A stretch of DNA of 64,000 bases from Candidatus Kapaibacterium sp. (GCA_963665665.1 OY762428.1:3328001-3392000); one strand, 5' to 3'. Positions 43,576-63,950 are shown, counted from the stretch's first letter. Numbers and translations are program-made. Notes: a model not told the origin generated them from the letters alone.

Positions 43576-44619
43576 TTATCCCAGATGATCATTTTTTCCT
43601 GCAAGCCGTTTAATATCACTTTCCAGCTCGTCCAAATCTCTTTCATGCTCAAGGAACTTCTTCTTTTCATTATACTTATCATATTCCGCCGAGGATTTAT
43701 TTAATGCCTTCCGGTGGCTGATCTTCCCGGCATGTTCAAGAAGCTCCCTGCCGTTGAGCTGCAAAATAATATCCAGCCTTTCAATCCAATCCTTCATATA
43801 CATCGGCGTATGCTGCTGCGCCATTGTTTCAGCAAATGCAAGGTATTGTTCCACTAATAACCCAAGAAGCTTCATCTCATCTTCATTCAGGTAGTTTTTG
43901 GCTATACTGACATCATTTTTCCTGATCTTGTCAGCCGGTTTCCTGTCGAAGGAAATCATTCCCATTAGTGGCAAATCTGCGTTAGCCCTGTTATACACCA
44001 ATTCCGCTGCCGTATTCCTGCTAATTGCCCAAAGCAGCTTGTTTTGAACTATCTTAAAAAACTCAATAGTCTTCTTATCTTTCGGATCATAATCAATACT
44101 TGTTGTATAAATATCTTTGATCTTCTGATAGAAAAACCGTTCTGACAGGCGTATCTCCCGTATCCTGCTTTGAAGCTCGCTGAAGTAATTCATAGCGCTG
44201 CCCGACTTGAAGCGCCCGTCATTCAGAACAAATCCTTTAACTATATATTCTTTTAACCGCTTAGTTGCCCAGATACGAAATCTGGTGCCATTTATTGATT
44301 TTACCCGGTAACCCACGGAAATGATTACATCAAGATTATAATATCTCACATCCCGGGATTGGGTTTTTCCTTTAATAGCTCCATGCCGGGTGGTTGTTCG
44401 GAAATTCCGGACAACCACTTCTTCATCAAGCTCGCCTTCCTCGAATATATGCTTAATATGTTCGCTGATTGTAGCTTTCGATTTATCGAAAAGATCGCAC
44501 AGTTGGGCTTGCGTCAGCCATACGGTTTCATCTTCAAGGCGGACATCAATTTTTATATCACTATTGGCCGACTTATAAATAAGAATTTCACTATTTTCCG
44601 GATTTATTTCTGTATCCAT
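43576..44619 (-). CDS. Virulence RhuM-family protein
   Basis: TVWLTQ, YNLDVIISVGYRV.S..GTRFRIWAT, IREIRLSER.FYQKIKDIY, VQNKL. Confidence 0.9.
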   Translation of the reverse strand: MDTEINPENSEILIYKSANSDIKIDVRLEDETVWLTQAQLCDLFDKSKATISEHIKHIFEEGELDEEVVVRNFRTTTRHGAIKGKTQSRDVRYYNLDVIISVGYRVKSINGTRFRIWATKRLKEYIVKGFVLNDGRFKSGSAMNYFSELQSRIREIRLSERFFYQKIKDIYTTSIDYDPKDKKTIEFFKIVQNKLLWAISRNTAAELVYNRANADLPLMGMISFDRKPADKIRKNDVSIAKNYLNEDEMKLLGLLVEQYLAFAETMAQQHTPMYMKDWIERLDIILQLNGRELLEHAGKISHRKALNKSSAEYDKYNEKKKFLEHERDLDELESDIKRLAGKNDHLG

Positions 44620-44802
44620 ATCCCGCCATTGCCTGTAATTTTATAATTCATTAAATTATCAGAAGTTATACCTGTTATATTTTAAAATAACATCCCTGCT
44701 TCCAGTAATAGAATCTAATCAAAATTTTTATTAAATCCCAATATTTCGTCGCTGCTATAGTGATATTGGAACAGCCGCCGAATGGCCTCTGATTGTTAAT
44801 TA

Positions 44803-45029
44803 TCAATTCTCTATTGGATACCTATCCGAAACAGTGGCGCGCACGTTGCCCAAATGATCTGTTAAATGGTACTGTTTCTCACCAACAATTCTATAAAAAG
44901 CGCTGCCTCGTGGTATTTCACTCGGCGAGTACACAAGTTCTTCCTTCGGCTGGCGAATAGCGAACCTGCCCTGCGCCGCCGAGCCGTATATATCCCACTC
45001 GGAAAGGATGCGCTGGTTTTCAAAGAACG
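44803..45029 (-). pseudogene. RHS core remnant
   Basis: EWDIYGS...GEKQYHLTDHLGNVRATVSD is an RHS core motif; no upstream gene body. Confidence 0.8.
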
Positions 45030-45074
45030 GATATTTGATATATAATTGGTTCAAGATATTAAATACATCACTTG

Positions 45075-45371
45075 CTAATGCCTTGTCACCCAGTACTTTG
45101 GTTCTTTTTTCAAATTCATAACAGCCAAAATAGTGATCATATTTTTTTCATGGGAATATATTAAGCCATAAGGGAAGTTATTCAAAAGATATCTTCGGGT
45201 GCGTTGTGATATCTTTTGCCATGCCTGGGGATAAGATAAAATATTATCAATACCCTTCGTTACTTCCGTCAAAAATTTTGCTCCAAGCCCTTCACTACAT
45301 ATATTATAGTAATCAATAGCGTCGGCCAATTCTTTTGCAGCATCAATATGAAAGCGATAATTCAGGGTCAA
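45075..45371 (-). CDS. RelE/ParE-family type II toxin
   Basis: A..EL.DAIDYY...GLGAKF, RRYLL.NFPYGLIY, ILAVM...KEPKYW. Confidence 0.9.
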   Translation of the reverse strand: MTLNYRFHIDAAKELADAIDYYNICSEGLGAKFLTEVTKGIDNILSYPQAWQKISQRTRRYLLNNFPYGLIYSHEKNMITILAVMNLKKEPKYWVTRH

Positions 45372-45601
45372 ATCCTGTCCGCCATACTTTTTAGAACATC
45401 ATCTCCGGGAATCGTTCCGGCTCTGCCTTTGTTTAAATCATCGAGCCTGTTTTCAGCAAGTTCAGCCCATTTTTTTTCAATTCCGGGATCAATATTATTC
45501 AGGCTTTGCAACAATTCTTCAATTATTTTAATCCTCAATTCTGCAGGCAGCTTATTTGCCGAATCAATGATTTCTCGTGCATTTATCATAGTTATCTCCA
45601 T
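45368..45601 (-). CDS. Addiction-module antitoxin (TIGR02574-like)
   Basis: LP.E.R..IIEELLQSL...W.E.A..R; ATGA overlap with the toxin. Confidence 0.85.
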   Translation of the reverse strand: MEITMINAREIIDSANKLPAELRIKIIEELLQSLNNIDPGIEKKWAELAENRLDDLNKGRAGTIPGDDVLKSMADRI

Positions 45602-45728
45602 TATTCAATTTACATTATTAGACGAAATATACAAAAATTATTTATGATATTTTACCAGGCGATGACAATCAAATTGCAAATATTCATTGCCCGATTGAAT
45701 TATAATATTTTCGCTTCGCTCAACAAAT

Positions 45729-45928
45729 GGATAGAAGCTGGCTGCGGCTTAGCCGCAATTGATAATTGAAAATGAACAATTGAAAATGAAGAGGAATGAA
45801 CAGCCAACCCAATTGTTAATTCTCAATTTTCAATTTTTAATTGGATACGGCTGGCGAATAGCAAACCTGCCATGCGCCGCAGAGCCATATATATCCCACT
45901 CGGAAAGGATGGGTGTTTTCAAAGATCG
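45729..45928 (-). repeat. RHS-derived inter-cassette repeat
   Basis: 64-bp block 45848-45911 matches 44947-45010 and 47271-47334; 32-bp block 45729-45760 is identical to 48734-48765. Confidence 0.85.
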
Positions 45929-45950
45929 GGAAGATAATATATATAATTAA

Positions 45951-46893
45951 TTATATATTATCTCGTATGTTATTATTCAGTTTTTGAAGCAAACCAGAAT
46001 TTTCAATTACTGAAAAAGCAAAGCATTTCCTGCCCAGATCCTTCAGCGATGCGCCTATATGATATAGTTTGTGACCGTCAATTATCAGGAATCTGTCATG
46101 AAATTCCCTGCTCAGCCGTATTGAAAGCTTAGGATACTGGCTGTTAAATTTATCAATATCAGTTTTATTTATTTTATTCTTGTTAGTAATTATTATTACC
46201 CGAACAGATTTTGCTTTTTTCGAGAGCATATCAAGCAAACTATCGTTAATATAATTGTCGATAATCACTATTTGCTCTTTTGCAGTTTTAATCAGGCCGA
46301 TCACAAAGCTATAAGCATCGTATATTTGCCCTTTAAAAAATATCCCCTGTTTTTGCTCTAACGATCTGCTGCCGATAGTATTTAGAACTGCCTCAACCTT
46401 TCTATCTGCTTCCGCCTGCCTGATCTCTACTGTTTCTATCCTTTGGAGCAAACCTGCATTTGCCAAAAGATATTTCCGCATCTCAACAAAAGCATCCATA
46501 ATTCTAATACTTGTGTTAATGGCAGTTTCGCTCCTCAGTACTGCCGCCAGCATTGATACCCCCTGCTCGGTAAAGGTATAAGGGAAATACTTCTTATGTT
46601 TTCCGCGTCCTTTGTTTAAGGTCACATTTTGTGACCTTAAAGATATATTATCAGGATTAGAAGATTGCAACTTCAAATTATTATTACTTTTAGCTATATC
46701 TTGCAGTTTCAAACCCTCATATTCTTCAGCAGTAAGTCGAAACATGAATCGTTCAGGAAACCTTTTAATATTTCTTTTTTACAGCCTGATTAAGGGCTTT
46801 AGTTTCCACGCCATAAAGTTCTGCCAGGTCGCTGTCTGTCATAACCTGCATTCCCCTGACGGTAAATATTTTATCTGTAATATCAATATTCAT
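45951..46893 (-). pseudogene. ORF6N-domain protein with PLD-like C-terminus, frameshifted
   Basis: RGMQVM.DSDLAELYGVETKALNQAVK then one extra A in an A6 run (~46775-46780); PYTFTEQGVSML; FHDRFLIID..LYHIGASLKDLG. Confidence 0.85.
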
Positions 46894-54046: not shown

Positions 54047-54961
54047 ATGCGATACCTGGATCCAAAAAACGATTTAACTTTCAAGAAGATTTTCGGGCAG
54101 AATCCCTTGCTGCTGAAAAGCTTTCTGAATGCCCTGATGCCATTCGAGGAGGAACAATACATTGAAAGCCTTGAATATCTGAATCCTGAACTGGTTCCGG
54201 AAATACCGGTTTTAAAAAATTCCATTGTCGATGTTCGTTGTGTTGACAACAAGGGAAGGCAGTTTATAATTGAAATGCAGATGCTCTGGACAGACAGTTT
54301 CAAGTCCAGGGTGCTCTTCAATGCTTCCAAGGCTTACGTCAGCCAGATAGACAAAGGTATTAAGTTCGAATCACTATGCCCTGTTTACTCGCTAAACCTG
54401 ATAAATGACATATACCTGAAGGATGATCCCGATTATTATCACCACTACAGCATAGTGAATATTGAAAACAGCTCAGAAAAAATTGACGGACTTGAGTTTA
54501 TATTTATAGAGCTTCCGAAATTCAAACCTACTTCAATTACAGAAAAAAGAATGGCTGTATTGTGGCTAAGGTTTCTGACTGAATACGAAGAAAACCTTCC
54601 TGAAATACAGGAATTACGTGAAAGCGAAGAAATTCAGCAGGCTATCCATATTCTCGATAAATTTTCTTATTCACCGGCTGAACTTGCTGCATACGAAAAG
54701 TACTGGGACGCTGTAAGAACCGAAAGGTCAATGCTTTCCGATTCTGAAAAGAAAGGAATTGAAAAAGGTATTAAATTGGGCGAAGCTATTGGAGAAGCAA
54801 GAGGAAAAGAAATTGGAATAAAAAAAGGAGAAAGAAACGAAGCGGAAAAAATTGCAATAAAAAGCGTTGAAGCGGGGCTTCCCAATGAGCTGATAAGCAG
54901 GCTAACCGGACTGACAACCGATGAATTAAGCGCACTAAAAATGAAAATGAAGAATGAATAG
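54047..54961 (+). CDS. Rpn-family PD-(D/E)xK nuclease/putative transposase, copy 1 (304 aa)
   Basis: LDPKNDLTFKKIFG, VDVRC...IIEMQ, FIELPKF, G-x-x-x repeat tail, ISRLTGL. Confidence 0.92.
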   Translation: MRYLDPKNDLTFKKIFGQNPLLLKSFLNALMPFEEEQYIESLEYLNPELVPEIPVLKNSIVDVRCVDNKGRQFIIEMQMLWTDSFKSRVLFNASKAYVSQIDKGIKFESLCPVYSLNLINDIYLKDDPDYYHHYSIVNIENSSEKIDGLEFIFIELPKFKPTSITEKRMAVLWLRFLTEYEENLPEIQELRESEEIQQAIHILDKFSYSPAELAAYEKYWDAVRTERSMLSDSEKKGIEKGIKLGEAIGEARGKEIGIKKGERNEAEKIAIKSVEAGLPNELISRLTGLTTDELSALKMKMKNE

Positions 54962-55166
54962 ATCTGTCTAAAAATACAAATTGCATAAAACAGATAATTT
55001 AATTTTGCCGATAATAAATTATTAGTGATTTTATTGCCGTAATATTTTATTATACAACCAAAATATTATTATTGATAAACTCATAAAAAATATATATATT
55101 TCCGTGGAAAAAAGCATTGAGAAACAACGTTTCAATATATAGTTAATAATTTTATCAGGATGAATC

Positions 55167-56057
55167 ATGCGATACCTCGATCCAAAAAACGATTTAACTT
55201 TCAAGAAGATTTTCGGTCAGAATCCCTTGCTGCTGAAAAGTTTCCTGAATGCCCTGATGCCTTTCGAGGAGGAACAATATATTGAAAGCCTTGAATATCT
55301 GAATCCTGAACTGGTTCCGGAAATACCGGTTTTAAAAAATTCCATTGTCGATGTTCGTTGTGTTGACAACAAGGGAAGGCAGTTTATAATTGAAATGCAG
55401 ATGCTCTGGACAGACAGTTTCAAGTCCAGGGTACTCTTCAATGCTTCCAAGGCTTACGTCAGCCAGATAGACAAAGGTATTAAGTTCGAATCACTATGCC
55501 CTGTTTACTCGCTAAACCTGATAAATGACATATACCTGAAGGATGATCCCGATTATTATCACCACTACAGCATAGTGAATATAGAAAACAGCTCAGAAAA
55601 AATTGACGGACTTGAGTTTATATTTATAGAGCTTCCGAAATTCAAACCTACTTCAATTACCGAGAAAAGAATGGCCGTATTGTGGCTAAGGTTTCTGACT
55701 GAATACGAAGAAAACCTTCCTGAAATTCAGGAACTCCGTGAAAGCGAAGAAATTCAGCAGGCCATCCATATTCTCGATAAATTTTCTTATTCACCAGCTG
55801 AACTTGCTGCATACGAAAAGTACTGGGACGCTGTAAGAACCGAAAGGTCAATGCTTTCCGATTCTGAAAAGAAAGGAATTGAAAAAGGTATCAAATTAGG
55901 CGAAGCTATTGGAGAAGCAAGGGGAGAAAGAAACGAAGCGGAAAAAATAGCAGTTAAAAGCATAGAAGCGGGGCTTCCCAATGAGCTGATAAGCAGGCTA
56001 ACCGGACTGACAACCGATGAATTAAGCGCACTAAAAATGAAAATGAAGAGTGAATAG
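55167..56057 (+). CDS. Rpn-family nuclease, copy 2 (296 aa)
   Basis: Same motifs as copy 1. Confidence 0.92.
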   Translation: MRYLDPKNDLTFKKIFGQNPLLLKSFLNALMPFEEEQYIESLEYLNPELVPEIPVLKNSIVDVRCVDNKGRQFIIEMQMLWTDSFKSRVLFNASKAYVSQIDKGIKFESLCPVYSLNLINDIYLKDDPDYYHHYSIVNIENSSEKIDGLEFIFIELPKFKPTSITEKRMAVLWLRFLTEYEENLPEIQELRESEEIQQAIHILDKFSYSPAELAAYEKYWDAVRTERSMLSDSEKKGIEKGIKLGEAIGEARGERNEAEKIAVKSIEAGLPNELISRLTGLTTDELSALKMKMKSE

Positions 56058-56262
56058 GTCTGTCTAAAAATACAAATTGCATAGAACAGATAATTTAATT
56101 TTGCCGATAATAAATTATTAGGGATTTTATTGCCGTAATATTTTATTATACAACCAAAATATTATTATTGATAAACTCATAAAAAATATATATATTTCCG
56201 TGGAAATAAGCATTGAGAAACAACGTTTCAATATATAGTTAATAATATTATCAGGATGAATC

Positions 56263-57189
56263 ATGCGATACCTGGATCCAAAAAACGATTTAACTTTCAA
56301 GAAGATTTTCGGTCAGAATCCCTTGCTGCTGAAAAGCTTTCTGAATGCCCTGATGCCTTTCGAAGAGGAACAATATATTGAAAGCCTTGAATATCTGAAT
56401 CCTGAACTGGTTCCGGAAATACCGGTTTTAAAAAATTCCATTGTCGATGTTCGTTGTGTTGACAACAAGGGAAGACAGTTTATAATTGAAATGCAGATGC
56501 TCTGGACAGACAGTTTCAAGTCCAGGGTGCTCTTCAATGCTTCCAAGGCTTATGTCAGCCAGATAGACAAAGGTATTAAGTTCGAATCACTATGCCCTGT
56601 TTACTCGCTAAACCTGATAAATGACATATACCTGAAGGATGATCCCGATTATTATCACCACTACAGCATAGTGAATATAGAAAACAGCGCAGAAAAGATT
56701 GACGGACTTGAGTTTATATTTATTGAGCTTCCGAAATTCAAACCTACTTCAATTACCGAGAAAAGAATGGCCGTATTGTGGCTAAGGTTTCTGACTGAAT
56801 ACGAAGAAAACCTTCCTGAAATACAGGAATTACGTGAAAGCGAAGAAATTCAGCAGGCTATCCATATTCTCGATAAATTTTCTTATTCACCGGCTGAACT
56901 TGCTGCATACGAAAAGTACTGGGACGCTGTAAGAACCGAAAGGTCAATGCTTTCCGATTCTGAAAAGAAAGGAATTGAAAAAGGTATCAAATTAGGCGAA
57001 GCTATTGGAGAAGCAAGAGGAGAAGCAAGAGGAGAAGAAATTGGAATAAAAAAAGGAGAAAGAAACGAAGCGGAAAAAATTGCAGTTAAAAGCATAGAAG
57101 CGGGGCTTCCCAATGAACTGATAAGCAGGCTAACCGGACTGACAGCCGATGAATTAAGCGCACTAAAAATGAAAATGAAGAATGAATAG
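56263..57189 (+). CDS. Rpn-family nuclease, copy 3 (308 aa)
   Basis: Same motifs as copy 1. Confidence 0.92.
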   Translation: MRYLDPKNDLTFKKIFGQNPLLLKSFLNALMPFEEEQYIESLEYLNPELVPEIPVLKNSIVDVRCVDNKGRQFIIEMQMLWTDSFKSRVLFNASKAYVSQIDKGIKFESLCPVYSLNLINDIYLKDDPDYYHHYSIVNIENSAEKIDGLEFIFIELPKFKPTSITEKRMAVLWLRFLTEYEENLPEIQELRESEEIQQAIHILDKFSYSPAELAAYEKYWDAVRTERSMLSDSEKKGIEKGIKLGEAIGEARGEARGEEIGIKKGERNEAEKIAVKSIEAGLPNELISRLTGLTADELSALKMKMKNE

Positions 57190-57393
57190 ATCTGTCTAAA
57201 AATACAATTGCATAAAACAGATAATTTAATTTTGCCGATAATAAATTATTAGTGATTTTTTTGCCGTAATATTTTCTTATACAACCCAAATATTATTATT
57301 GATAAACTCATAAAAAATATATATATTTCCGTGCAAATAAGCTTTGAGAAACAACGTTTCAGTATATAGTCAGTAATATTATCAGGATGAATC

Positions 57394-58296
57394 ATGCGAT
57401 ACCTGGATCCTAAAAACGATTTAACTTTCAAGAAGATTTTCGGTCAGAATCCCTTGCTGCTGAAAAGCTTTCTGAATGCCCTGATGCCTTTCGAAGAGGA
57501 ACAATATATTGAAAGCCTTGAATATCTGAATCCTGAACTGGTTCCGGAAATACCGGTTTTAAAAAATTCCATTGTCGATGTTCGATGTGTTGACAACAAC
57601 GGAAGACAGTTCATAATTGAAATGCAGATGCTCTGGACAGACAGTTTCAAGTCCAGGGTACTCTTCAATGCTTCCAAGGCTTACGTCAGCCAGATAGACA
57701 AAGGTATTAAGTTCGAATCACTATGCCCTGTTTACTCGCTAAACCTGATAAATGACATATACCTGAAGGATGATCCCGATTATTATCACCACTACAGCAT
57801 AGTGAATATAGAAAACAGCGCAGAAAAGATTGACGGACTTGAGTTTATATTTATTGAACTCCCGAAATTCAAACCTACTTCAATTACAGAAAAAAGAATG
57901 GCCGTCCTCTGGCTAAGGTTTCTGACTGAATACGAAGAAAACCTTCCTGAAATACAGGAATTACGTGAAAGCGAAGAAATTCAGCAGGCCATCCTTATTC
58001 TCGATAAATTTTCTTATTCACCGGCTGAACTTGCTGCATACGAAAAGTACTGGGACGCTGTAAGAACCGAAAGGTCAATGCTTTCCGATTCTGAAAAGAA
58101 AGGAATTGAAAAAGGTATTAAATTGGGCGAAGCTATTGGAGAAGCAAGGGGGGAAGCCAGAGGTGAAAGAAACGAAGCCGAGAAAATAGCAGTTAAAAGC
58201 ATAGAAGCGGGGCTTCCTAATGAACTGATATGCAGGCTAACCGGACTGACAGCCGATGAATTAAGCGCACTGAAAATGAAAATGAAGAATATATAG
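57394..58296 (+). CDS. Rpn-family nuclease, copy 4 (300 aa)
   Basis: Same motifs as copy 1. Confidence 0.92.
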   Translation: MRYLDPKNDLTFKKIFGQNPLLLKSFLNALMPFEEEQYIESLEYLNPELVPEIPVLKNSIVDVRCVDNNGRQFIIEMQMLWTDSFKSRVLFNASKAYVSQIDKGIKFESLCPVYSLNLINDIYLKDDPDYYHHYSIVNIENSAEKIDGLEFIFIELPKFKPTSITEKRMAVLWLRFLTEYEENLPEIQELRESEEIQQAILILDKFSYSPAELAAYEKYWDAVRTERSMLSDSEKKGIEKGIKLGEAIGEARGEARGERNEAEKIAVKSIEAGLPNELICRLTGLTADELSALKMKMKNI

Positions 58297-58410: not shown

Positions 58411-58667
58411 TCATAGTATTCGTAATCACCTTTAGCTTCGAAAGTAACCCGATCCAAAACCAAAATTGTATCTGTATAATAATTGAAATAAATCTTTTTG
58501 ATTTTATCATATCCATTAAAATATATATCAAAATCAGCAGTTACAGGTGTTTTGCCCTCGCAGGGATCCGGTTCAACCTTCACCGGGTCGTCCGGGCAGG
58601 CGGTAAGCAGCCACATCAGTGGCAAAACCACCGCGAAGTAATAATATCTGAATTTATTTGGTTTCAT
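58395..58667 (-). pseudogene. Truncated third copy of the tandem lipoprotein
   Basis: Same N-terminus as 58664..59440; breaks off after YEYYEWQL. Confidence 0.85.
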
Positions 58668-59440
58668 TGTTTCACTCCTATGAAAGTATATTCTTTCCTG
58701 TCGTCGTAAGGGCCGGCTTCGTAGTTTACAATAAGCGTCTTATTATCCGCCTGGAGTTCGGCATAGCCGTCAGGCGACTGACATCCGTAACTATAGCAAT
58801 AATCGCTTTTCATAATCGCATATTTATTCAGCCAGCTAATGCTTACAATATTTCCATTGATATTTTCAGGCATAAAAAAACCTCTGTTAATATTGTAAAT
58901 TATCAGGCCTTTAAGCATACCTTCATATTTGACATCAACCCTAAATGTATCAAGAGTATCAGAAGTATGATAACCAAGATAGGAACCAATAATCGCAGCA
59001 GAGTCCAATTCAACTACTGTTATTGTTTTATATACGGTGTCAATTCCGTCGTCGGCGGGGAAGCATAATGTATCAGGCGGATTTTTAACAATAAGCCGCA
59101 TTTTTAATTCGCCCCAGGCTTCTTTGAACTGGAAAATTTCGATTTTATCATTATATATTGTAGGATCATCGCCGAGCTGCCATTCATAGTATTCGTAATC
59201 GCCTTTGGCTTCGAAAGTAATACGATTATAAACCAAAGCAGTATCTGTATGATACTTAAAATAACTCTTTTCAATAACATCATAAGCTATGGTGGAAATA
59301 TCAAAATCAGCAGTTACAGGTGTTTTACCCTCGCATGGGTCCGGTTCAACCTTCACCGGGTCGTCCGGGCAGGCGGTAAGCAGCCACATCAGTGGCAAAA
59401 CCACCGCGAAGTAATAATATCTGAATTTATTTGGTTTCAT
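58664..59440 (-). CDS. Lipoprotein with PKD-like domain, copy 2
   Basis: Lipobox LTAC; VTADF, YEWQLGD; paralogue of 59437..60216. Confidence 0.85.
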   Translation of the reverse strand: MKPNKFRYYYFAVVLPLMWLLTACPDDPVKVEPDPCEGKTPVTADFDISTIAYDVIEKSYFKYHTDTALVYNRITFEAKGDYEYYEWQLGDDPTIYNDKIEIFQFKEAWGELKMRLIVKNPPDTLCFPADDGIDTVYKTITVVELDSAAIIGSYLGYHTSDTLDTFRVDVKYEGMLKGLIIYNINRGFFMPENINGNIVSISWLNKYAIMKSDYCYSYGCQSPDGYAELQADNKTLIVNYEAGPYDDRKEYTFIGVKQ

Positions 59441-60216
59441 TGTTTCACTCCTATGAAAGTATATTCTTTCCTGTCGTCGTATGGGCCGGCCTCGTAGTTT
59501 ACAATAAGTGTTTTATTATCCTCCCGGAGTTCGGCATATCCGTCGGGTGACTGGCTTCCGAAACCATAACAGTAATCGCTTTTCATAATCGCATATTTAT
59601 TTTCCCAACGAATCTGAACAATATTTCCATTGATATTCTCAGGTAAATGAAAACCCCGATTAATGTTGTAAAATACAAGCCCCCTATCCATACCTTCATA
59701 TTTGACATCAACCCTAAATGTATCAAGAGTATCAGAAGTATGATAGCCGATATAGGAACCAATAATCGCGGCTGAATCCCTTTCAATAACTGTTATTGTT
59801 TTGTAAACTGTATCAATTCCGTCGTCATCGGGAAAGCATAATGTATCAGGCGGATTTTTTACAATTAGCCGCATTTTTAATTCACCCCAGGGATTTTTAA
59901 ATCTAAATAATTGTTGATCTCCGGTATAAATTGTGGGATCATCTCCGAGCTGCCACTCGTAGTACTCGTAATCGCCTTTTGCTTCAAAAATAACATAATT
60001 TGATTTTAAAACTGTATCGCTATGATAATAAAAGTTGGATTTACTAATAGCATCATACATTTTCATATATATATCAAAATCAGCAGTTACAGGTGTTTTA
60101 CCCTCGCAGGGATCCGGTTCAACCTTCACCGGGTCGTCCGGGCAGGCGGTAAGGCTGAACATGAGAATAGAAAATAATAATATCTTAAAAATATTTTTGG
60201 TATCGGATAAAAACAT
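59437..60216 (-). CDS. Lipoprotein with PKD-like domain, copy 1
   Basis: Lipobox LTAC; GAGG SD; ATGA overlap with the next copy. Confidence 0.85.
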   Translation of the reverse strand: MFLSDTKNIFKILLFSILMFSLTACPDDPVKVEPDPCEGKTPVTADFDIYMKMYDAISKSNFYYHSDTVLKSNYVIFEAKGDYEYYEWQLGDDPTIYTGDQQLFRFKNPWGELKMRLIVKNPPDTLCFPDDDGIDTVYKTITVIERDSAAIIGSYIGYHTSDTLDTFRVDVKYEGMDRGLVFYNINRGFHLPENINGNIVQIRWENKYAIMKSDYCYGFGSQSPDGYAELREDNKTLIVNYEAGPYDDRKEYTFIGVKQ

Positions 60217-60499: not shown

Positions 60500-60528
60500 C
60501 TCCTTCCCAAGCCCCGCTTGGGAAGGAG
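60500..60528. repeat. Perfect 13-bp-stem hairpin
   Basis: CTCCTTCCCAAGC CCC GCTTGGGAAGGAG. Confidence 0.75.
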
Positions 60529-60589
60529 GGGAAACTCCCTCTCCAGCACTCTCCCTCCATTCTTCCACTTTAATGAATCGAATAATTTC

Positions 60590-60967
60590 CTTGTTTCAAT
60601 GCTGTTTTGAACCAGAATCCTGATGTTTGGGCTAATCGCTTTGCTGTCGGGGCTTTAAACTGCTATGTCCGGAGGTATTGAAGCATTGTTTGGCCTTATT
60701 GTAGTGAAATCCGGCCTAATTGCTTGCTTGTTCCGCCTTACTGCTCACTTGTTCTGCCTTATTGCTTGCTTGTTCCGCCTTACTGCTCACTTGTTCTGCC
60801 CTATTGCTTGCTTGTTCTGCCTCATTGATGTCTTGTTCCGCTTCATTGCTCACTTGTTATGCCTCATTGATGTCTTGTTTCGCTTCATTACTTGCTTGTT
60901 CCGCCTTATTGAAGTCTTGTTCTGCTTCATTGCTTGCTTGTTCCGCCTCGTTGCTTGCTTGTTTGGC
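60590..60967 (-). repeat. 21-bp tandem array, left (12 conserved units at 60716-60967 plus ~6 degenerate)
   Basis: Minus-strand unit GCRGAACAAG-NNNN-CAAT-NNN. Confidence 0.92.
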
Positions 60968-60997
60968 ATTGAAATCCCAAAGGTAGAGATGAATTAA

Positions 60998-61490
60998 GTC
61001 TTTAGATATAACTAATAATCAAATATATAGCCCAAAATATTAAATATTATACTAATTTTAATAAATATATAGTATTTATAATAATTTATATAATATATCC
61101 AAGTCTTAATATAGTTCATCTAACAAAACTTTTTATATAAATAACTAAATATCTTATACATATAATTAAATAATTGGTATGATTTATTAAATTAGTATTA
61201 TAGACTATTAAATATTAGTATTAACCTATTAATTAATCAGTATATCTAATTTGTTAAAACAATTAAATATATACTTGGATACTCAATATATTTTATAAAA
61301 GAAGAAAGAGAATTTATAAGAAATAGTGATTAATGTCTTGTATAAATTATTTATTTGATTAGTTATATTATTAATATTGTAATTCTATATAATTATTTAA
61401 TAATTCAATAAATATATTTACTACAAATACTTAAATATTTACTAATTCTTATGATATATTTTATTATTCAAGTATTATAAATTATTCAAT
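60998..61490. other. Extremely AT-rich non-coding core
   Basis: Hand count of about 60 G+C in the 460 nt from 61021 to 61480 (~13% GC); no ORF. Confidence 0.9.
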
Positions 61491-61536
61491 CAGCAAAATA
61501 TTTCGGATTCCAACGCTACACAAGCAATCATTACCA

Positions 61537-62444
61537 CCGACCAAGGCAGCAATGACTCCGACCCCTCCCAAACCCTCCCCGAAGGAGAGGGCTTTGAAGA
61601 AGAATAAAGCAACAATAGAATCAAACATTGGTTCTTTGCTTTCGAACATTGGTGCATTGACTCCAACCAAGGCAGCAATAAAATCAAACATCGGTGCAAT
61701 GGCGTCAAACAAGGCGGCAATAACTTAAAACATCTATGCAATAACTCCGACCCCTCCCAAACCCTCCCCGAAGGAGAGGGCTTTGAAGAAGAATAAAGCA
61801 GCAATAGAATAAACCATTGGTTCTTTGCTTTTGACCAAGGCAGCAATGACTTCGACCAAGGCAGCAATGACTCCGACCCCTCCCAAACCCTCCCCGAAGG
61901 AGAGGGCTTTGAAGTAAAACAAGGCAGCAATAGAATAAACCATTGGTTCTTTGCTTCCGAACAAGGCAACAATGGTTTAGACCAAGGCGGCAATAACTTC
62001 AAACATCTATGCAATGACTCCGACCCCTCCCAAACCCTCCCCGAAGGAGAGGGCTTTGAAGAAGAATAAAGCAGCAATAGAATAAACCATTGGTTCTTTG
62101 CTTCCGACCAAGGCAGCAATTGAATAAAACATTTGTGCAATAGCGTCGACCATTGGTACATTGCTTTCGATACTTCCTACCTCCTCCCGCCCCCCTCCTT
62201 CGGAAGGAGGGGGAGTTAATTCTATGTTATTTAACTTCTTATCCCCTCCTAAAGTAGGAGGGGAATACAGGGGTGGTTTTCTTGCTTTGATTTGGAACAA
62301 GGCGTTATTATCTTCAAACAAAGCAGCAATAACTTCGAACAAGGCGGCAATGGCGTCAAACAAGGCAGCAATTGAATAAAACATTAGTGCAATGACTCCG
62401 ACCCCTCCCAAACCCTCCCCGAAGGAGAGGGCTTTGAAGAAGAA
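61537..62444 (+). repeat. 21-bp tandem array, right, with five identical 42-bp hairpin inserts and one 126-bp insert
   Basis: Units like TCGAACAAGGCGGCAATGGCG; inserts start at 61558, 61747, 61873, 62020, 62398; 126-bp insert at 62167-62292. Confidence 0.92.
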
Positions 62445-62521
62445 TGAACGGCTTCCTTTAAAAAAAACAGCGATTTAAGGTGAAATAATCTTAACTTGCA
62501 AAAAATCAAAAGGAGCATCAA

Positions 62522-62809
62522 ATGGCAAACAAACGAAGAAATTACAGTTCAAAATTCAAAATGCAGGTAGCCCTGGAGGCAGTCCAAGAGAGAAAAACAA
62601 TAACCGAGCTGGCATCGGAGTACGGGGTTCATCCAAACCAGATAAGCATGTGGAAAAAGCATTTAAAAGAAAGTGAAAAGGAAGTATTTGAAAACAAGCG
62701 TGGGCCAGGGAAGAATAAAAAAGAAAAAGACGAATCAGTATTATATGAAGAAATAGGCCGGCTAAAAATTGAATTAGACTGGTTAAAAAAAAAATTGGGA
62801 CGTGAGTAA
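62522..62809 (+). CDS. IS3 transposase OrfA (HTH)
   Basis: RRNYSSKFK.QVALEA...ELASEYGVHPNQI..WKK...ELDWLKKK; AAGGAG SD. Confidence 0.92.
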   Translation: MANKRRNYSSKFKMQVALEAVQERKTITELASEYGVHPNQISMWKKHLKESEKEVFENKRGPGKNKKEKDESVLYEEIGRLKIELDWLKKKLGRE

Positions 62810-63647
62810 AGAAGAACGCAGGAAGATGGTAGATGCTGATAATAAAGAAATTAGCATAAGCCGGCAGTGCGAGCTTTTGGGTATTAGCAGGAGCTGTTAT
62901 TATTACAAACCCAAGGGTGAAAGTGAAGCAAATATTCTATATATGAAGCTGATCAAAGAACAATTCGCGATTACTCCATTTTATGGAGCCAGAAAAATGA
63001 CAGCACACTTACGTTCTTTGGGATACCATGTTAACTATAAACGAATCAGGCGATTAATGAAATTATTGGGACTTCGGGCAATATATCCCCAACCGGACAC
63101 GAGCAAACCGAACAAGGAGCACAAAATTTATCCATACCTGTTGAGGGATATGAAAATAAGTCGTCCGGATCAGGTTTGGAGCCTGGATATAACATATATT
63201 CCGATGCGTAAAGGATTTATGTATCTTATAGCAATTATAGATGTTTATAGCAGGTATATCGTCGACTGGGAATTATCGAATAACCTTGAGAAGGAGTTCT
63301 GCATAGATACAATAAAAAGGTCTTTGAAAACCAGGAAACCGGAAATAACAAACACGGATCAGGGCAGTCAGTTCACGAGCAATGATTTTGTGAAAACGAT
63401 TCTGGATGCTGATGTTAAGGTAAGCATGGACGGCAAGGGCCGCGCCTTGGACAATGTTTACATAGAACGCTTCTGGCGGAGCTTTAAATACGAAGACCTG
63501 TATCTGAAGTCTTACGAAGACGGAAAAGAGCTCTATGGCGGTATAAAGGCTTATGTCGATTGGTATAACAACACGAGGCCGCACGCAGGAATTGAATACC
63601 AGATTCCGGCTGAAAAATATATGAACGAACAGCGGTTCGTTAATTGA
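62802..63647 (+). CDS. IS3 transposase OrfB (DDE integrase core)
   Basis: WSLDITY, IDVYSR, NTDQGSQF, DNVYIERFW. Confidence 0.95.
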   Translation: MSKEERRKMVDADNKEISISRQCELLGISRSCYYYKPKGESEANILYMKLIKEQFAITPFYGARKMTAHLRSLGYHVNYKRIRRLMKLLGLRAIYPQPDTSKPNKEHKIYPYLLRDMKISRPDQVWSLDITYIPMRKGFMYLIAIIDVYSRYIVDWELSNNLEKEFCIDTIKRSLKTRKPEITNTDQGSQFTSNDFVKTILDADVKVSMDGKGRALDNVYIERFWRSFKYEDLYLKSYEDGKELYGGIKAYVDWYNNTRPHAGIEYQIPAEKYMNEQRFVN

Positions 63648-63887
63648 AAACTTTGTTGGAAAAGTGAAAAAATGCAATCCGGTAAGCAATTGATAAAAAA
63701 AGAAATAGAAAGGAGAGTGAAAGTTATCCACAATTTCCAGGTTGTTAACAAAAAGAAAAAAAAGTAGCAAAAAAAAGAAAAATTAATATTATTACATATT
63801 TTTTTCTTATTTTATTAGAGAAGAAGTATAGATTAATAAACACCATAAACTATACTTTTATTTGTCTAAGCAATAGGGAGCATTTCA

Positions 63888-63950
63888 GAATAAAGCAGCA
63901 ATGACTTAGAACATTAGTGCATTGCCTTCGACCCCTCCAACCTTCCCCCG
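63888..63950 (+). repeat. Continuation of the 21-bp array beyond the IS
   Basis: TAAAGCAGCAATGACT / TAGAACATTAGTGCATTGCCT / degenerate hairpin start. Confidence 0.8.

Follow-up and report, generated by a model that had tools for sequence, protein, structure and literature searches.

We analysed a 64,000-nucleotide window of the chromosome of Candidatus Kapaibacterium sp. (GCA_963665665.1 OY762428.1:3328001-3392000) and found that the repeat locus near its end, beginning at about position 60561, is a single member of a composite repeat family that is dispersed, non-coding and lineage-specific, a mosaic similar to the bacterial interspersed mosaic elements (BIMEs), and not a one-off device. A first-pass annotation had described this locus as two arrays of 21-bp units pointing away from an AT-rich core. 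Across the complete genome (5,458,198 bp, 38.6% GC), we found 53 loci that share a leader of ~165 bp with 80-96% identity. The family follows one order: leader, array 1 (units of type A, C or E), an optional core that occurs only with type A units, and array 2 (type B units with the hairpin modules H1 and H2). Positions below are those of the window unless they are given as genome positions.

Arrays of this period stand out in the genome as a whole. Tandem Repeats Finder (TRF) returned 288 rows of period 21. Among rows with at least 4 copies and periods of 8-45, period 21 accounted for 171 and period 42 for 42, whereas the next commonest period (12) accounted for 13; rows whose period is a multiple of 21 cover 61,022 bp, which is 1.12% of the genome. 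BLAST with the core as query (at least 530 bp, 80-100% identity) gave 17 rows, including two overlapping rows at one locus, and hence 16 loci with the window's own. Fourteen of the 17 rows were ungapped across all 542 bp, and the same two types of array border every core copy, beginning at its edges exactly in 21-bp register. The AT-rich core of about 0.5 kb described by the first-pass annotation is therefore a fixed 542-bp unit of 13-15% GC. A leader was detected at 14 core-bearing loci. The remaining 39 of the 53 leader loci are coreless and consist of the leader, a C- or E-type array 1, a short fixed junction, a B-type array 2 and hairpin modules that end in a T-run. A further hairpin mosaic lies upstream of 50 of the 53 leaders and, in most full copies, is 250-580 bp long and GC-rich.

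Because the same leader serves the 39 coreless loci, where array 1 runs directly into array 2, the element is a single unidirectional lattice. Read directly, the consensus unit of array 1 is the reverse complement of the array 2 unit at 15 of 21 positions, and this partial complementarity produces the appearance of divergent arrays. Arrays that point away from a core thus find no support as the functional logic of a family that mostly has no core. The stretch in which the left array was thought to decay with distance from the core is the conserved leader common to all 53 loci. Other parts of the first description held up well. The skeleton AACA-N6-CAAT common to both arrays is real (253 left-type units), and in these A units positions 1-6, 11, 12, 14, 16 and 18 are nearly invariant. 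The four-nucleotide slot singled out as the main difference between units corresponds to positions 7-10, which are the most variable (CAAG 66, TGAG 45, ACAT 44 and ACTT 8), although positions 13, 15, 17, 20 and 21 vary too.

The lattice is kept in register from one end of the element to the other. Array 2 lies at offset 12 of 21 from the leader start at 48 of 53 loci, and at 13 of the 14 core-bearing loci with a leader, which means that everything between leader and array 2, the core included, keeps the lattice. In the window copy all five H1 modules fall on lattice positions, as calculated from the leader anchor. A 21-bp period also runs through the consensus of the core, whose autocorrelation peaks at lags 21, 63 and 42. 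When the 16 cores were aligned with 30 nt on each side (MAFFT, 602 columns), we observed no gap column, at least 313 substitutions and 755 differences from the consensus. The 53 leaders, compared over 230 nt, also had no gap column, with at least 170 substitutions in 165 columns. Uncalibrated against matched neutral sequence, these counts point to selection against insertions and deletions (indels) in both leader and core, and they do so strongly for DNA of 13-15% GC.

We also examined whether conservation itself follows the lattice, by counting the permutations that reached the observed variance of the phase means of per-column conservation. The core was phased at period 21 (20 of 5000 permutations) and unphased at periods 19, 20 and 22 (4210, 4646 and 4010 of 5000); periods 23 and 42 gave 328 and 113 of 5000. 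Leaders were phased at 21 (24 of 3000) and gave 2453, 2293, 1131 and 2952 of 3000 at 19, 20, 22 and 23. The arrays vary in length. Between 0 and 34 A units were scored per copy, with 5-34 in 15 of 16 copies, and runs of identical neighbouring units occur; varying unit number together with such runs points to gain and loss of whole units. This variation was observed between paralogous copies, and short-read contigs of four runs break inside the repeats.

The element lies outside genes, mostly at gene 3' ends. With open frames of at least 200 aa as gene proxies, 22 of the 53 loci lie between convergent genes, 29 in tandem contexts (15 co-oriented, 14 opposed) and two between divergent genes. Within 1.5 kb, arrays follow the stop of 120 such open reading frames (ORFs) and precede the start of 76. 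At 37 of 53 loci the upstream gene points the same way as the element. Leaders are co-oriented with the replichores defined by GC skew at 22 of 53 loci, and a flip of orientation along the chromosome was not significant (353 of 2000 permutations). Arrays followed genes for candidate type IX secretion system cargo (150 of 375 candidates) in 10 of 150 cases versus 110 of 2858, which is not a significant difference (p = 0.088).

A second, unrelated and GC-rich family of 21-bp arrays is present in the same genome at 27-32 loci (for example, genome 235705-236290), with D1 units (CATCCCAACGCTAAGACGGCA) followed by D2 units (CGGGGGAACGCTCGGAAAGCT). The order D1 to D2 was found in 11 of 11 two-part loci. 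The family as a whole is placed much like the first one, and its 5' and 3' flanks are conserved. Here the upstream gene is co-oriented at 19 of 27 loci, giving 56 of 80 for the two families combined (p = 0.0005).

The distribution beyond this genome is narrow. A search of 40 relatives, 24 from the same family but none from the same genus, did not recover the element and gave only short matches to the hairpin module. The skeleton pattern has 484 matches here and none in a reversed control; elsewhere in the class it has a single match, in one of 300 genomes, most of them assembled from short reads, in which such repeats may have dropped out. In a scan of 185,579 species genomes we recorded at least 86 stretches, a mix of heptad repeats that are coding, 7-bp arrays of cyanobacteria and 21-bp arrays that are non-coding. 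Among the matches listed, two loci of a Candidatus Kapaibacterium metagenome-assembled genome (MAG) and one of an unclassified MAG share the layout of the element: they are non-coding, and a short junction links two distinct types of unit that keep a common register, with unit sequences unlike those here. In all, three other genomes carry this two-part layout. That Kapaibacterium MAG has only two loci by the skeleton pattern. The leader pattern had no match in metagenome contigs, and a search of the openly accessible literature, supplements aside, found no published account of dispersed 21-bp arrays or of repeats in Kapabacteria.

Taking together the register, the absence of indels and the phasing of conservation at 21 bp, we tentatively favour a reading to which we give slightly less than an even chance: that selection keeps the lattice because an oligomerising nucleic-acid-binding factor reads it in phase. 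The occurrence of a two-part, in-register layout in three other genomes also speaks for it. Such a factor would most likely read the element on double-stranded DNA, where 21 bp corresponds to two helical turns. The arrays and the easily melted core would then form a long phased platform for binding or wrapping, with the core as its meltable or bendable centre, a role that may be comparable to that of BIME clusters binding nucleoid proteins. Slippage or unequal exchange would lengthen and shorten the arrays, and entire elements would have been copied to new sites. The phased platform put forward by the first-pass annotation gains support from the same three observations. Simple helical phasing of AT and GC, or bendability, does not explain the 21-bp lock, because the 10.5-bp AT/GC harmonic, which is strong in the A and B arrays of the window and present in D1 and D2, is missing from several unit families.

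Several observations weigh against this reading. Function is deduced from constraint alone, the counts of indels and substitutions are uncalibrated against matched neutral DNA of this genome, and copies that evolve in concert could be part of the cause. The 10.5-bp harmonic is absent in C-type arrays and weak in E-type and most outgroup arrays. Orientation in tandem gene contexts is unbiased (15 versus 14), and the spacing of loci along the chromosome is no more regular than random. Occurrence in one of 300 genomes of the class fits a young selfish expansion as well as it fits function.

The main rival, which we think possible but doubtful, is that these elements are neutral or selfish DNA, a minisatellite-bearing mosaic without a cellular role. 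The shared period would then reflect descent from one ancestral array with whole-unit slippage, and the missing indels would reflect young age and in-register gene conversion among copies. Restriction to one lineage agrees with this, as do a placement away from promoters that is typical of tolerated repeats, a unit number that differs from copy to copy, the lack of orientation preference in tandem contexts, the random-like chromosomal spacing and the tolerated insertion sequence (IS) in array 2 of the window copy. What is hard to obtain without selection is the accumulation of at least 313 substitutions without an indel in a core of 13-15% GC, and of at least 170 in the leaders. Moreover, core and leader are phased at 21 and not at 19, 20 or 22, neither is homogenised as the arrays are, and the unrelated D1/D2 family has the same period and the same two-part design.

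A less probable alternative is that the element acts as RNA, transcribed from the leader or by read-through from upstream, and serves as a multivalent sponge for an RNA-binding protein or folds array 1 onto array 2 in a long, imperfect hairpin. In its favour are the strong strand asymmetry (array 1 T-rich, array 2 A/C-rich), the 15-of-21 complementarity of the two units, the co-oriented upstream genes, and the hairpin and T-run modules that close array 2, although full copies have terminator-like modules ahead of the leader as well. Among seven sequencing runs listed, no RNA run held the locus. Cofolding of the two arrays gained -36 to -57 kcal/mol at four of four loci, compared with -9 to -16 for a reverse-complement control, but such a gain is small over a length of 250 nt, and a reversed-sequence control scored better than the window copy (-45.5 versus -35.7). 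We rejected a long double-stranded RNA stem between the arrays because of this small gain. A consensus fold of the leader was likewise unsupported (-1.0 and -9.2 versus -3.0 +/- 1.8 for column shuffles, with 0 and 4 compensatory pairs). Rfam 15 had no match at gathering score in the window, its one sub-threshold hit scoring 22.4 against 42 bits, and sigma-70-type promoter-like sites in the core (13) were not above shuffles (8.0 +/- 2.8), a scan that applies to a host that may use other promoters.

Since seven residues equal 21 bp, the arrays could in principle be degenerate genes for heptad-repeat proteins separated by an intergenic AT-rich core; we consider this very improbable. At coreless loci one frame (f0) is open across arrays 1 and 2, often for 200-300 codons, an ATG stands at the array 1/array 2 junction of coreless loci and of the Kapaibacterium locus, and 9 of the 15 copies with scored A units have an open outward frame 3 in the A array (AEQASNE-type heptads). 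However, two of three frames are open in each unit type, so a shared open frame is guaranteed, and in core-bearing copies f0 is interrupted by stops within array 2. Conserved stops interrupt every one of the three leader frames, and no start is conserved. All 16 copies of the core contain 10-26 stops per frame in the six frames, and this non-coding core holds the same lattice. The two ORFs that span the arrays in the window had no match to a Pfam family. The stops that the first-pass annotation had noted in the outward frames of the window copy are there (3, 11 and 2).

Variation within the units pointed the same way. In A units (n = 253) it showed no codon periodicity, and in B-type units (n = 1049) mean entropy by codon phase was 0.96, 0.87 and 0.90. 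Synonymous alternatives were nearly absent: AAT occurred 817 times and AAC 8 times, CAA 752 times and CAG 27 times, and GAC 333 times with GAT outside the ten commonest codons. The fourth codon of the B-type unit ended in C in 94% of units, its first two bases being free to vary. The lack of codon periodicity and the near absence of synonymous variants indicate that conservation acts at the nucleotide level, and coding is excluded as far as sequence can tell. The first-pass annotation was thus right to see a DNA- or RNA-level feature rather than a gene. It had also allowed that its idea should fall if the architecture never recurred or if the arrays belonged to heptad-repeat ORFs; neither holds, as 16 loci of this genome have the architecture and the arrays do not belong to ORFs of that kind.

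Iteron-type replication origins of plasmids and centromeres of the parC/sopC type place tandem units, bound by protein in phase and each about two helical turns long, beside AT-rich DNA. The first-pass annotation had called the locus possibly iteron- or centromere-like. That the element is such an origin or centromere from an integrated plasmid or mobile element is the least credible explanation of all: the likeness is one of form only, tandem direct repeats (17-22-bp class) of about two helical turns next to an easily melted AT-rich stretch, whereas one chromosome carries 16 core-bearing and 53 related copies among unrelated housekeeping and secreted-protein genes, known iteron sets are much shorter than these arrays of 5-34 units, and neither Rep, ParA/ParB or related families nor a linked parA/parB or parM/parR pair was found in a scan for Pfam-type families that covered 37 ORFs of the window (35 with a length of 180 aa or more and the two array-spanning ORFs). 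The absence of Rep, ParAB and Cas genes from the window, as first reported, was confirmed in the same scan. A CRISPR array was rejected as well, since the units stand head to tail without spacers and the window has no Cas family.

We then compared the element, by description, with known repeat families. BIMEs and clusters of repetitive extragenic palindromes (REPs) in enterobacteria and Pseudomonas are dispersed extragenic mosaics of short GC-rich hairpins with variable module number, enriched at gene 3' ends and between convergent genes. Like these, the element is dispersed, extragenic and modular, with palindromic units, and it is depleted between divergent genes (2 of 53) with 22 of 53 loci convergent. 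Unlike these, its body is a 21-bp tandem lattice with up to 34 units per array and a fixed 542-bp AT-rich sub-array. Bacterial minisatellites, or variable-number tandem repeats, have tandem units of 10-100 bp and are usually independent single loci. The element may resemble them in that unit number differs between its paralogous copies and local runs of identical units point to recent slippage, but its 53 loci have a leader, junction, end modules and one lattice phase in common, and its non-array parts resist indels.

Dispersed heptamer arrays are the other close comparison. The short tandemly repeated repetitive sequences of cyanobacteria are arrays of this kind. GGGNATC arrays of Xanthomonas and Nostoc are described as dispersed, non-coding and under-represented between divergent ORFs, with 70-75 cases in Xanthomonas (GGGAATC) of inverted array pairs on opposite strands (PMC4692102), and TAACTGA arrays are described from Beggiatoaceae, cyanobacteria and some Bacteroidetes (PMC4679880). 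The inverted pairs of Xanthomonas, as far as these accounts describe them, resemble the mirrored logic of array 1 and array 2. The heptamer arrays differ, again in the parts of these accounts on which we draw, in having 7-nt units, mostly in 2-26 copies, with no leader and no AT core. The 21-bp element has no G-quadruplex potential; TRF called periods of 21, 42 and 63 rather than 7, and a 7-bp harmonic was not dominant in A, B, C or E units. BIME/REP mosaics and dispersed heptamer arrays are thus the closest described systems, and by those descriptions neither has a 21-bp unit, a leader, an AT-rich sub-array or a demonstrated lattice constraint. What is added here is the composite architecture of dispersed 21-bp arrays together with measurements of its constraint.

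The window copy is set out in Table 1. TRF called array 1 at period 21 with 11.9 copies, GC falls to 13-15% over approximately 61000-61500, and the stretch that follows mixes 21-bp units with 42-bp hairpin modules. The copy lacks the upstream hairpin mosaic, and its homology to other copies begins 8 nt into the leader; modules resembling the hairpin just upstream compose that mosaic in full-length copies. The H2 module was found again in array 2 of other copies. Of the span 60590..62444 given by the first-pass annotation, the arrays and the core are real, but the element starts at about 60561 and array 2 resumes at 63888, past an IS.

Table 1. Features of the element and of the inserted IS in the window copy.
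Feature	Position	Strand	Remarks
GC-rich hairpin, terminator-like	60500..60528	-	13-pair stem; just beyond the 5' edge of the element
Leader	60561..60713	+	~7 diverged lattice units; stops in 3/3 frames; common to 53 loci
Array 1, type A	60714..60963	+	12 units (CCGCCTCATTGCTTGCTTGTT in leader direction); T-rich strand
AT-rich core	60964..61505	+	542 bp; 13-15% GC; non-coding; AT-rich 21-bp units, diverged
Array 2, type B mosaic	61506..62444	+	GACCAAGGCAGCAATGACTCC and variants; A/C-rich strand; in register with leader
H1 hairpin module	61560..61601	+	two lattice units
Further H1 copies	61749-61790, 61875-61916, 62022-62063, 62400-62441		all in lattice register
H2 module	62173..62285	+	two GC-rich hairpins, then GGGGTGGTTTT; stem 62191-62213
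IS3-family IS	62445..63887	+	1443 bp; TG...CA ends; within array 2
IS orfA	62522-62809	+	
IS orfB	62802-63647	+	
IS target duplication	62442-62444 and 63888-63890		3 bp, GAA
Array 2 remnant past the IS	63888..63950	+	end approximate

The IS is a recent chance insertion. It has 18 copies in the genome at 98.8-100% identity, with 3-bp target duplications, and its contig depth was ~18x that of the flank in one sample and no greater than flank depth in a sample of a second study. We considered and rejected the idea that this IS3-family element targets the hairpins, as just one of the 18 copies adjoins an H1 hairpin.

The neighbours of the element in the window are ordinary chromosomal genes. Directly upstream are two adjacent lipoprotein-like ORFs of 258 and 259 aa (58664-59440 and 59437-60216, both on the minus strand) without a Pfam family. 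Both carry an array of a 9-bp motif (AAAAGTATC) at the same relative place (58943-58968 and 59716-59741), which suggests a tandem gene duplication. Further upstream, 54047-58296 holds four tandem paralogous PDDEXK_2 genes (Rpn-type nuclease/putative transposase) of ~300 aa each, and 43576-46745 holds RhuM-family and ORF6N-domain genes, possibly the remnant of a mobile element. PDDEXK_2 has 19 matches genome-wide at ~12 loci, and two of the matches lie beside another core-bearing element (genome 3891397-3893384). A link between PDDEXK_2 genes and arrays was not upheld: ~4 lie within 5 kb of an array, compared with ~2 expected by a rough estimate, and there is no clear association.

Other repeats of the genome share some of these features. 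A ~1.56-kb repeat in six copies (for example, genome 859805-861379), two of them IS-interrupted, is composed of a 200-bp module, AT-rich 21-bp-like units, an AT-rich stretch of ~560 bp and a 179-aa ORF without a Pfam family; its 200-bp module also lies beside many C/E-type arrays. One clear gene for a Y1_Tnp transposase (RAYT/IS200-type) was found at genome 1821817-1822161, and a second, weak match lies inside a 1399-aa frame. The Y1_Tnp gene is bordered by its own hairpin family (GCTCC-GTAG-GAGC type, ~25 copies), the classical REP-RAYT arrangement. A link of RAYT to the array family was therefore rejected, and in this respect the element differs from REP-RAYT systems, which have a cognate Y1 transposase flanked by the same repeats. 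Intergenic AT islands without flanking arrays (at most 17% GC, ~550-580 bp) lie, for example, at genome 1193939-1194489, 1732478-1733060, 2358310-2358880, 2399451-2400016, 2666280-2666827, 3764877-3765426 and 5074515-5075064. They are strikingly similar in size, but homology of the core to these ~550-bp islands was rejected, with just 60-65% identity on both strands at many offsets.

There is a modest chance that the family marks a new kind of chromosomal system. A further reading, which we consider unlikely, is that this lineage and, more widely, bacteria of the Fibrobacterota-Chlorobiota-Bacteroidota (FCB) group with period-locked 21-bp arrays hold an undescribed system at the level of the chromosome. 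In it, long non-coding lattices with a strict period of two helical turns, here made up of a T-rich array, a meltable AT sub-array and an A-rich array, would be read in phase by a filament-forming or wrapping nucleic-acid-binding protein, with selection acting on the lattice itself, as the lack of indels and the phased conservation would suggest. If true, this system would be a bacterial counterpart of functional satellite DNA. In practical terms, the arrays yield long spurious ORFs, which is a warning for gene callers, and the family is a marker for long-read strain typing. If the element is selfish, it would show with unusual clarity that a family of repeats can depend on helical phase to propagate or persist; if a protein reads the lattice, it would represent a hitherto unknown way of organising or marking bacterial chromosomes.

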